This document shows, one piece after another, positions 50,489 through 51,740 of a stretch of 54,921 nucleotides of DNA (its first letter is position 1; every line of letters starts with the position of its first letter). The DNA comes from a virus. Lineage: Duplodnaviria > Caudoviricetes. Made by a program: the position numbers and the translations under genes. Below the pieces are notes generated by a model. That model was not told the origin of the DNA. It searched no databases and worked only from the letters and a program-made list of their open reading frames with translations. Where the stretch lies: positions 1-54,921 of the IMG/VR virus record IMGVR_UViG_3300050003_000010; one strand, 5' to 3'.

Positions 50489-51529
50489 TCAGGCGGAGCG
50501 CTTGCGGCCTCGCGCGGCCCTGAGGATGTAGTCGCGCGTCGCATTCGGCCAGACTGCACGGACTGCGGCAACGACCTCGTCCGGCGTCTGGGTGACCTCG
50601 TTCCAGACGCGACGGGCAGTGTCTGCCACGGTCTGGTCTGTGTCTGAGGCTGCGTCTGCCTGAATCCAGACTGTGGTCTGTGACCTGCGGGTCTGCTGTC
50701 CGGATGTGTCTGCGTGCACCGACGTCTGCGTGTCCGGCGGCGCGTCCGCGGGTGTCTGGGCGGACGGCTCGGCGCGAACAACCGGTGGCGCCTCAGGCAT
50801 TGCCGGCGCGGGTGTCTGAACCGGCGCCGCAGGCAGTCCGGGCATGTCTGTCGATGGCCCGAACGCGGCAGCCTCGGCGTTGAGAATGCGCCGTGCGCGC
50901 GAGGCCCGACGTTTGACGGCGACCAGGGCGACACCGGCGCTTGCCGCCGCGTCTTCCTGCCTGACCCATGCTTCAGTGAGCGGGTCGAACCGGGGTGCGC
51001 AGTACCGCATCACGACGACGACGGCGACCTTGGCGAGTGCGGACACTCCCGCGCCGGCCACGCCGACCCAGGGCTTGCCGATTGCCCAGCCGTGGGCTGC
51101 GATGGCGGCCATCGCTACGACGAGGGCGGCGTGTCCGGCCTTGCGCGCGCCGGCCGCGCGGCGGGGGTCGAAGCGGCTGAGCCATTCGACGCCGAGGCAC
51201 ACGATCCAGGTCAGGTCGAATACGGCGGCGGCGAGGTATGCGGCGAGGGCCGGGGCGACCAGGCACAGCAGTGCGCCGATCGACACGGTGGACCAGGAGA
51301 CTGCGGCGGTGACCATGACGGACGCCGCGGTGACAATCCCGACGAAGATCACGTGGTCCCAGTCCCGCGGAGGTAGGGGAATGCGAACGGTGTAGGTCTC
51401 CGGAACGACGCGGGTGATGCCGTCGATGGTGTGCTCGACGTGGCGTACGCGTTCGATCTTGCGGGTGCGGACGTCGGGTGTGCCGCCGGCGGTTGGTGGC
51501 GGGGGCCGCATAAGGTTCTGTTCAGCCAT
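50489..51529 (-). CDS. SpdB/DUF2637-like four-TM protein with QT-rich linker and short helical C-terminal domain
   Basis: PLPPRDWD...WSTVSIG.LL...AAVFDL.WIVC...EWL.RFDP.RA; GGAG RBS. Confidence 0.75.
   Translation of the reverse strand: MAEQNLMRPPPPTAGGTPDVRTRKIERVRHVEHTIDGITRVVPETYTVRIPLPPRDWDHVIFVGIVTAASVMVTAAVSWSTVSIGALLCLVAPALAAYLAAAVFDLTWIVCLGVEWLSRFDPRRAAGARKAGHAALVVAMAAIAAHGWAIGKPWVGVAGAGVSALAKVAVVVVMRYCAPRFDPLTEAWVRQEDAAASAGVALVAVKRRASRARRILNAEAAAFGPSTDMPGLPAAPVQTPAPAMPEAPPVVRAEPSAQTPADAPPDTQTSVHADTSGQQTRRSQTTVWIQADAASDTDQTVADTARRVWNEVTQTPDEVVAAVRAVWPNATRDYILRAARGRKRSA
50586..50850. repeat. Intragenic GTCTG (CAGAC) repeat cluster
   Basis: 13 GTCTG plus 2 inverted copies in about 265 bp. 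Confidence 0.85.
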
Positions 51530-51599
51530 CGGGAGGTCTCGTCTCCGCTGGTGGTGAGGGCCCGGTTCTGGGGGTGTGAGAGTCCCTGGAGCCGGGCCC

Positions 51600-51740
51600 G
51601 TCTGCGTCTGTGGCAGTTCGCTGGCGGCGGTGCTGGCCGGCGATGCCGTAGAGCAGCCTACCGGATGGGGCAAGCCGACAGACACGTTCAGACAGGCGTG
51701 TCTGGGTGGTGTCTGGGTGTGTCTGTGGTGTCTGGTCTGG
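51600..51740. repeat. Upstream GTCTG (CAGAC) repeat cluster, putative operator
   Basis: GTCTG at 51600, 51606, 51700, 51711, 51721, 51730, 51735; CAGAC at 51679, 51689. Confidence 0.85.

Follow-up and report, generated by a model that had tools for sequence, protein, structure and literature searches.

We describe here a membrane-protein gene of the phage recorded as IMGVR_UViG_3300050003_000010 (Duplodnaviria; Caudoviricetes), together with two dense clusters of the word CAGAC that occupy part of its coding sequence and the non-coding DNA in front of it. The window, that is, the whole stretch of DNA analysed, comprises the 54,921 bp of the record, which is rated 100% complete, has 70.5% G+C and is that of a whole temperate siphophage of the Streptomyces type. 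An earlier note, made from the letters alone, had reported the clusters and proposed that the DNA coding for a linker in the protein doubles as an array of sites bound by the protein's own C-terminal helical domain. Since the gene lies on the minus strand, GTCTG on the plus strand corresponds to CAGAC on its coding strand, and copies in this orientation are called direct in what follows. The features of the locus are these:

50489..51529, minus strand: gene of the SpdB-like phage membrane protein (P0002), 346 amino acids, matching phrog_35187 with E 3.9e-54
50999..51466, minus strand: conserved N-terminal part, a beta hairpin (residues 22-51) and four membrane helices (57-177) according to the AlphaFold (AF2) model and the family alignments
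50690..50863, minus strand: DNA coding for a disordered linker, residues 223-280, rich in Gln-Thr and Ala-Asp, with a predicted local distance difference test score (pLDDT) of 43-68
50495..50689, minus strand: C-terminal helical domain, the candidate array reader, with helices 281-295, 301-311, 316-326 and 332-345 and a core pLDDT of 85-94
50550..50850, minus strand: intragenic array of CAGAC, with 13 copies direct and 3 inverted; CAGACAC in 5 cases
51600..51739, minus strand: upstream array of CAGAC in non-coding DNA, with 7 copies direct and 2 inverted; CAGACAC in 5 cases
51653..51674, minus strand: conserved block CTTGCCCCATCCGGTAGGCTGC, which separates the distal array from the proximal pair of copies and was found by alignment with three homologous loci (L112, L072 and L035)

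The membrane protein and its CAGAC arrays

The AF2 model of the protein, built on a 45-sequence alignment (mean pLDDT 79.8), places the membrane helices at residues 57-88, 94-117, 122-149 and 153-177 (pLDDT 84-90), the four-helix arrangement of SpdB, and continues after the membrane part with a long helix (residues 183-222). By the positive-inside rule we read both ends of the protein as probably cytoplasmic, the Arg/Lys-rich segments being the N-terminus, the second loop and the post-membrane helix. The C-terminal helical domain claimed by the earlier note appears in the model as a small, confidently predicted bundle, which the same rule puts on the cytoplasmic side. When the 45-sequence family profile was compared using hhalign with the membrane part of SpdB from plasmid pIJ101, it aligned over 115 columns with a probability of 89.9% (E 1.7e-6), suggesting that the membrane part is remotely like plasmid SpdB. 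A protein-atlas search gave SpdB_N and HTH_SpdB_C (PF27080 and PF27079) as a lead in the same direction. Neither the membrane protein nor the products of the genes around it could be placed in a Pfam or NCBIfam family, except for HTH_17 and DUF732 on two downstream genes, and PHROG gave families of unknown function only for the same set.

A recount returned exactly the numbers given in the earlier note, 13 plus 2 copies within 50586-50850 and 7 plus 2 within 51600-51740. The direct intragenic copies (GTCTG) start at 50586, 50621, 50631, 50636, 50642, 50654, 50676, 50691, 50708, 50724, 50754, 50814 and 50846, and the inverted ones (CAGAC) at 50604 and 50667, with a third at 50550, outside 50586-50850. 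This array corresponds to codons 227-316, or up to codon 327 when the inverted copy at 50550 is counted, and covers the disordered linker and the beginning of the C-terminal bundle. The upstream array lies in 51530-51741, which is non-coding on the strand of the gene and is bounded by the ATG at 51529 and by the stop codon of a 79-codon gene. Its direct copies start at 51600, 51606, 51700, 51711, 51721, 51730 and 51735 and its inverted copies at 51679 and 51689; five direct copies phased by 5-11 bp are thus followed by two inverted ones, and another pair sits at 51600-51610. The spacing of about 10 bp noticed before for the copies at 51700, 51711, 51721 and 51730 is one of 11, 10 and 9 bp. Altogether, 50586-50850 and 51600-51740 hold 20 direct and 4 inverted copies, that is, 24 in about 400 bp, plus the one at 50550.

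Such a density is peculiar to these two places. The whole record contains 70 GTCTG and 33 CAGAC, and its densest 250-bp bins are the two arrays, with 13 and 9 copies; no other bin exceeds 3, which answers the genome-wide density check proposed at the outset. From base composition, 265 bp would be expected to hold 0.32 copies on each strand, in agreement with the claimed chance rate of well under one. For the longer word CAGACAC, 10 of the 12 copies in the record fall within the two arrays. Tandem-repeat scoring recognised only 29 bp of the intragenic array (50631-50659, period 6) and 38 bp of the upstream one (51698-51735, period 11), and the sequences flanking the CAGAC copies are not conserved; the arrays are therefore not one expanded unit. 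Over the whole record CAGAC/GTCTG stays below the expectation from dinucleotide shuffling (103 versus 143 +/- 11), and outside the arrays the minus strand, which is mostly coding, carries CAGAC twice as often as the plus strand. Avoidance of the word elsewhere was considered as evidence and dropped: outside the arrays it is the fifth lowest of 30 words of the same composition, and 19% of 7-mers of the same composition are as rare there as CAGACAC. As CAGAC is no outlier among such words, its genome-wide under-representation is probably an effect of codon usage.

The reading frames used by the intragenic copies are informative about the level at which the word is maintained. Among the 13 direct copies, the frame is CAG-ACN (Gln-Thr) in seven and NCA-GAC (x-Asp) in six, none occurring in the third frame, so that the several frames mentioned in the earlier note are two of the three. 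The codons chosen in the 121-codon tail were compared with those in 40 genes of this phage (8,784 codons). Ala, Ser, Pro or Thr followed by Asp is written NCA-GAC in 6 of 9 cases in the tail versus 2 of 164 in the reference genes, Gln-Thr occurs 7 times in the tail versus 26 times in the reference codons, and A-ending codons make up 19 of the 121 versus 4.9%. Nine further copies lie in non-coding DNA. Because of these rare NCA codons, the two frames and the non-coding copies, it is well supported that the CAGAC word itself, rather than a peptide, is selected at the nucleic-acid level, as had been claimed for the DNA.

Arrays of other words in homologous genes

A direct search with the single protein brought up no viral locus, only one isolated phage (SF3, in two accessions) and one plasmid, and a word-based protein search gave 6 relatives. 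Alignment-based scans, in turn, yielded 67 viral and 80 genomic loci, with relatives of the SpdB-like gene found almost only in genomes of Streptomyces, Kitasatospora and Streptacidiphilus and in viral contigs. The homologous gene was defined in 146 loci and, once identical proteins and unusable loci were dropped, 122 distinct genes were kept, that of this phage included. In each of them the most enriched 5-mer between the end of the membrane domain and the stop codon was evaluated against the rest of the 10-kb locus, and 610 windows of the same size from the same loci served as controls. The top linker 5-mer reached p<1e-4 in 103 of the 122 homologues, p<1e-6 in 89 and p<1e-10 in 56, versus 97, 22 and 4 of the 610 controls (median -log10 p of 9.4 versus 2.9). 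In the linker the word reaches a median of 44 copies per kb, compared with 3.4 in the DNA of the membrane domain and 4.1 elsewhere.

The word itself varies by lineage. Some lineages carry TCCGGA with flanks of their own (GTCCGGA, CTCCGGA, TCCGGAA, GATCCGGA), and others CGGATCC; CCGGACAG / GGACA; CGGACAG; CGGACAC; CGCATCA; CGAGCA; CGTTGAG; GCGCACCA; CCGGTCA / TGACCA; CGGGGAC; or CAGATGCA, with CAGACAC being the array word of this phage only. The linker peptide changes along with the word, from Pro-Asp/Glu-rich with TCCGGA to His/Glu-rich with CGAGCA and Gln-Thr/Ala-Asp-rich here, and in the TCCGGA lineages the base preceding the word comes from T-ending codons (AAT, GAT, CGT, CTT) that are rare in the codon table of this phage. 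The protein seems to accept whatever linker the DNA word dictates. Linker arrays with lineage-specific words are, in short, a well-supported trait of the whole family, and the expectation that homologues would show a different word in their linker DNA was largely borne out.

An array in front of the gene is much less widespread. With the same word required to be enriched at p<1e-3 within 300 bp upstream, a matching upstream array was found in 6 of the 122 homologues (this phage, L035, L043, L044, L072 and L112), including a 54,244-bp record (L043) in which 13 of the 15 GGACAGGACA copies are in the two arrays. Promoter plus linker is therefore a subgroup trait, and the idea that homologues share a matched motif at both places stands for these six and falls for the remainder.

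Four of the six, this phage and loci L112, L072 and L035, have homologous upstream regions with a mean column identity of 67%. At the aligned upstream positions this phage has CAGACAC and the other three CGGACAC, each matching its own linker array. As read from this alignment, a word present in more than 20 copies at two sites is one that has changed in concert, from CGGAC to CAGAC. A concerted change at two sites is what would be expected if the sites follow a change of specificity in one reader, and replacement of the 3' part of the gene as a block is no explanation for it. The same four loci share a leader ending in a ribosome-binding site and an upstream block with the consensus CTTG(A/C)C.C..CCG.TAGG(A/C)T.CTG. 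This block, CTTGCCCCATCCGGTAGGCTGC in our phage, includes a -10-like TAGGCT at 51655-51660 (TAGGCT or TAGGAT across the relatives) and is partly palindromic (CATCC..GGATG in relatives); it is a candidate promoter, or else an operator, possibly for a different regulator. A scan of 50300-52100 for sigma-70 consensus promoters and terminators found nothing.

What may read the arrays

Taken together, these data indicate that the clusters are probably protein-binding arrays. As to the protein that binds them, the reading we favour, with a probability of roughly 0.45, is that the reader is the C-terminal domain encoded by the gene itself. The CAGAC(AC) clusters would be sites for a sequence-specific DNA-binding protein, one array lying upstream beside the promoter-like block and the other within the DNA coding for the disordered linker, a peptide that would be free to follow the DNA word. 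The most likely reader being the cytoplasmic C-terminal helical domain, many membrane-anchored copies of the protein would coat both arrays, which flank the 5' half of the gene. Such coating would keep the phage genome at the membrane, beside the Spd-like membrane proteins that the downstream genes encode, with a probable feedback on operon transcription as well.

Support for this proposal comes mostly from co-variation. Across the 122 homologues, no gene other than the membrane gene is tied to the arrays; of its upstream neighbours in this phage, one has relatives in 5 of the 146 loci and the others in none. The C-terminal domain, taken as the C-terminal 55 residues, is alignable across most homologues, and the similarity of arrays was measured as a cosine from linker DNA excluding the last 55 codons. 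Array similarity correlates with identity of the C-terminal domain when the N-terminal domain is controlled for (partial Spearman 0.60, reached by 0 of 500 label permutations), the reverse comparison, N-terminal identity with the C-terminal domain controlled, giving 0.11 (reached by 21 of 500). In 81 pairs with an N-domain identity of at least 0.6 and a C-domain identity below 0.3 the median array cosine is 0.0, and in 88 pairs with N-domains less than 50% and C-domains at least 50% identical the median array similarity is 0.40. Among the 95 pairs with C-domains at least 80% identical, dissimilar arrays occur in 1. Single-linkage clustering of the arrays by cosine was tried and dropped, 111 of the 122 merging into one cluster. 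The prediction that the word would co-vary with the C-terminal domain thus stood in that the word tracks this domain over the membrane domain, with the reservation that independent events are few.

That reservation is the first of several points that weigh against a self-encoded reader. On a tree of the N-domain, the 18 clusters of C-domains undergo 22 changes, five above the minimum, and the independent-pairs test has 3-4 contrasts only, too few for a sign test to attain 0.05. Since the DNA of the linker and that of the C-terminal domain adjoin each other as a single 3' block, linkage or block replacement could also give co-variation. No array at p<1e-4 is found in 19 of the 122 homologues, some of which (L050, L052 and L053 among them) keep a C-terminal domain of the same cluster as their array-bearing relatives, and 116 of the 122 have no upstream array. 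Searches with the domain were of no more help: a profile of 40 C-terminal domains gave no alignment with pIJ101 SpdB, the one comparison sequence used (probability 0.1%); the word-based search found no relative of this phage's own C-terminal domain; Foldseek returned no PDB match with E<1 for the whole model and, for the C-terminal domain, a best E of 3.2 with Fur/PerR/ArgR-type rows on top; and VIA-align wide gave the C-terminal domain a best Z of 5.5 (a BEN domain), under the bar of the tool for helical bundles. Since these fold searches are uninformative, the domain is not called helix-turn-helix (HTH) on structure. Finally, the plasmid protein SpdB2 is described as binding double-stranded DNA without sequence specificity (PMC4170104, PMC4447253).

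Two side observations concern the same genes. One of the array-less homologues, L052, sits in a 60,934-bp viral record, the sole relative from the collection of isolated phages, and encodes 424 amino acids, with a long tail and no significant array (best 7-mer p 2e-4); not every member of the family, then, has an array. The profile built from 40 C-terminal domains matched TAL effector repeat proteins of the PDB with whole-sequence E values of 2.5e-14 to 3.2e-6. This score adds up about 9-20 repeat matches, none of them significant singly (0-6 bits), and the pattern common to both, (T/D)PD.V...(loop)..ETV.R.L, extends over one helix-loop-helix; the match may reflect only convergent helix-capping motifs.

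A different reader, although rather unlikely in our estimation, is the alternative that survives best. The arrays would then bind another regulator of the phage, or else a translocase of the FtsK/TraB type that belongs to the host or to a conjugative element residing in it, and would be a clt-like handle for the movement of phage DNA. Plasmid clt loci, direct 7-9-bp repeats differing between elements, have the same look, and upstream copies phased by about 10-11 bp beside a promoter-like block resemble the sites of many regulators. Against this, the phage has no FtsK/SpoIIIE-family protein of its own (no match to FtsK_SpoIIIE at E<=1 in the 54,921-bp record, and no FtsK/TraB-like gene), the membrane gene is the sole gene associated with the arrays across the homologues, and array similarity tracks its own C-terminal domain. 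Moreover, a host or foreign protein would leave unexplained why dozens of lineage-specific words are retained.

Much less credible is that the DNA has no function as such, the low-complexity linker having grown by slippage and short duplications with selection on the composition of the peptide only. The linker is indeed disordered in the AF2 model, very different compositions are tolerated, and parts of some arrays are plain tandem repeats (those of L043, and the 29 and 38 bp mentioned above). A mere by-product would, however, hardly use two frames and rare codons (6 of 9 versus 2 of 164), nor would it place nine copies in non-coding DNA or leave the flanks of the copies unconserved; in addition, upstream and intragenic words match in six homologues and have shifted together from CGGAC to CAGAC, and enrichment of this kind is rare in the control windows.

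A signal in the RNA has slightly poorer prospects still. In one version the rare A-ending codons (19 of the 121 tail codons, versus 4.9%) would slow ribosomes after the membrane helices to favour insertion; in another, CAGAC would bind an RNA-binding factor or form a structure, the two arrays being on the sense strand of one probable transcript and the inverted copies being able to pair with the direct ones. Pausing, however, requires neither a single fixed word nor copies before the start codon, and the leader folds only modestly better than its shuffles (z -1.86, a fold equalled by 10 of 200 shuffles). Many words of the relatives, besides, are palindromic (TCCGGA, CGGATCCG) or occur in both orientations, which better suits double-stranded DNA.

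The remotest of the four is a packaging site, pac or cosB-like, read by the small terminase. Packaging sites within coding DNA can consist of repeated hexamers, as in P1 pac, and the homologous gene lies a few kb upstream of terS and terL on the same strand in 41 and 38 of the 146 loci; the HTH stretch of TerS in this phage is also unlike that of its relatives. The arrays are nevertheless neither in nor next to terS, being 5.5 kb away here and 2.3-4.3 kb in relatives with variable genes in between, and their fixed position within the linker of one gene is left unexplained. In the 30 loci with terS in reach, identity of the TerS HTH stretch correlates weakly with array similarity (partial 0.26; reached by 4 of 500 permutations) and the C-terminal domain of the membrane protein twice as strongly (0.53; 0 of 500). 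The same HTH stretch is present in 29 of the 30 distinct TerS rows, 28 of them with related CCGGA/CGGAC/GATCC-type words; because 28 of the 30 rows carry related words and the TerS HTH of this phage differs, the TerS test is a weak one. Three other ideas were dropped: origin iterons, as the gene encodes a membrane protein and not a replication gene; attP, the integrase being 33 kb away; and decoys of restriction sites, many of the words not being palindromes.

Precedents and the surrounding genes

Well-known phage systems offer partial analogies to a membrane protein that would read sites in its own gene. In lambda O, the iterons of ori are embedded in the part of the O gene coding for the inter-domain linker, and site and reader are inherited together; repeated sites within linker-coding DNA are common to both cases, although O is a soluble replication initiator and not a membrane protein. 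The phi29 protein p16.7, with a single membrane helix, keeps phage DNA at the membrane through a cytoplasmic C-terminal domain that binds DNA with no sequence specificity. No site arrays are known for p16.7, which has no sequence relation to the present protein, with its four membrane helices and its arrays.

The closest parallels come from the conjugative plasmids of Streptomyces. SpdA2 of pIJ101 binds a 12-bp palindrome (sps) present in 2-3 copies inside its own gene, or just upstream of it in some plasmids, and these copies impose an SRDD/E motif on the peptide (PMC4170104). This self-binding within the own gene is a precedent for the reader that we favour: in both cases the sites are inside or just upstream of their own gene and dictate the peptide. 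The sps site is one palindrome conserved across many plasmids, whereas here we find 10-30 copies of a 5-8-bp word that varies by lineage; and SpdA2 is a small soluble protein whose binding has been shown, unlike our four-helix membrane protein, a candidate reader.

The clt loci, in turn, are clusters of 7-9-bp repeats that are specific to each element and are held by the TraB/TraA translocase through its winged helix, for example TGACACC, four times in pWTY27, and CCGCACA[C/G][C/G], nine times in pJV1, bound by the Tra protein (PMC3583192, PMC4447253). The 8-bp recognition repeats of TraB were reportedly described by Vogelmann et al. in 2011. The phage arrays are likewise short, direct, element-specific repeats clustered in about 50-200 bp and partly over coding DNA. 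The clt locus serves as a cis handle for a membrane-bound protein on double-stranded DNA, a role that our arrays may share, and its reader is an FtsK-like ATPase acting on 3-9 copies, unlike the present case, with no such ATPase and about 25 copies. The 3' part of pIJ101 spdB (L149, 2735-3220) holds no comparable array; for its best 7-mer, GACCCGG, 4 of the 8 copies in the plasmid lie there (p 2e-4). GACCCGG resembles the 8-bp TraB recognition repeat reported for pSVH1, a weak likeness and possibly chance.

SpdB2 is a four-helix, pore-forming membrane protein needed for intramycelial spread (PMC4447253, PMC4170104). The phage protein resembles SpdB/SpdB2 in being a four-helix membrane protein with a cytoplasmic tail, encoded first in a run of small membrane-protein genes. 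It differs in its siphophage context without a TraB/FtsK-like translocase, in a C-terminal domain without detectable similarity to that of pIJ101 SpdB and in its dense arrays, none being reported for SpdB2. The case would thus combine an SpdB-like protein, clt-like arrays and an SpdA2-like self-encoded site, and by analogy it works like these systems while not being a proven member of any. Copy number, lineage-specific words, the use of linker-coding DNA and the absent translocase set it apart from SpdA2, clt and SpdB2. A full-text literature search, with subscription journals and supplements outside its coverage, returned no description of such arrays in phage genes.

The genes that follow the SpdB-like gene encode small, mostly hydrophobic products:

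49795..50424, minus strand: second membrane gene (P0003), 209 amino acids, with relatives downstream of the homologous gene in 14 loci
49366..49773, minus strand: third membrane gene, 135 amino acids, phrog_38677
48383..49369, minus strand: fourth gene, 328 amino acids, its N-terminal half with hydrophobic stretches, without a match in Pfam or PHROG
48126..48386, minus strand: fifth small gene, 86 amino acids, phrog_32136

Relatives of these four are found behind the homologous gene in 5-14 of the 146 loci, with different array words, and in our own comparison the run 48126-50424 looks like the spd operon of plasmids. It is conceivable, although improbable, that temperate Streptomyces phages took over the spread machinery of plasmids, an SpdB-like protein gripping a clt-like, self-encoded array by means of a sequence-specific C-terminal domain and passing naked genomes through hyphal cross-walls with the help of the downstream membrane proteins. 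If so, the phage would colonise the mycelium without virions, and lineage-specific words would keep co-resident phages off each other's machinery.

SpdB2 homologues on actinophages have been mentioned, their role being only guessed at (PMC4447253). The arrays give that guess something testable, being dense, lineage-specific and fixed in position in more than 100 prophages, where the candidate reader is encoded within a few dozen codons of them. Should the C-terminal domain read them, they would constitute a natural series of matched pairs of short words and small domains, useful for the study of shifts in DNA-binding specificity (such as CGGACAC to CAGACAC), and the disordered linker would be free coding space for a cis-acting DNA element. 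The subject also bears on the organisation of phage DNA at the membrane in mycelial bacteria, and annotation and codon-usage analyses should handle these linkers as DNA elements and not as ordinary coding sequence.

The rest of the record includes the following genes, the first three assigned by PHROG search:

41388-43277: portal
39969-41384: head morphogenesis protein
30815-34072: tape measure protein
43195-44769: large terminase (terL)
44475-45008: small terminase candidate (terS), with an N-terminal HTH
25864-27471: lysin
17075-18319: tyrosine integrase
20678-22030: HTH_31 protein
9918-11009: RecT
4757-5743: HTH_36 protein, by our own reading perhaps the replication initiator

Upstream of terS, in 45018-47284, lie a collagen-repeat/DUF4082 tail-fibre-like gene (45018-46124), an LtfC-like gene (46046-46411), a DUF732 gene (46433-47038) and an HTH_17/excisionase-like gene (47084-47284), an unusual location for fibre-like genes.

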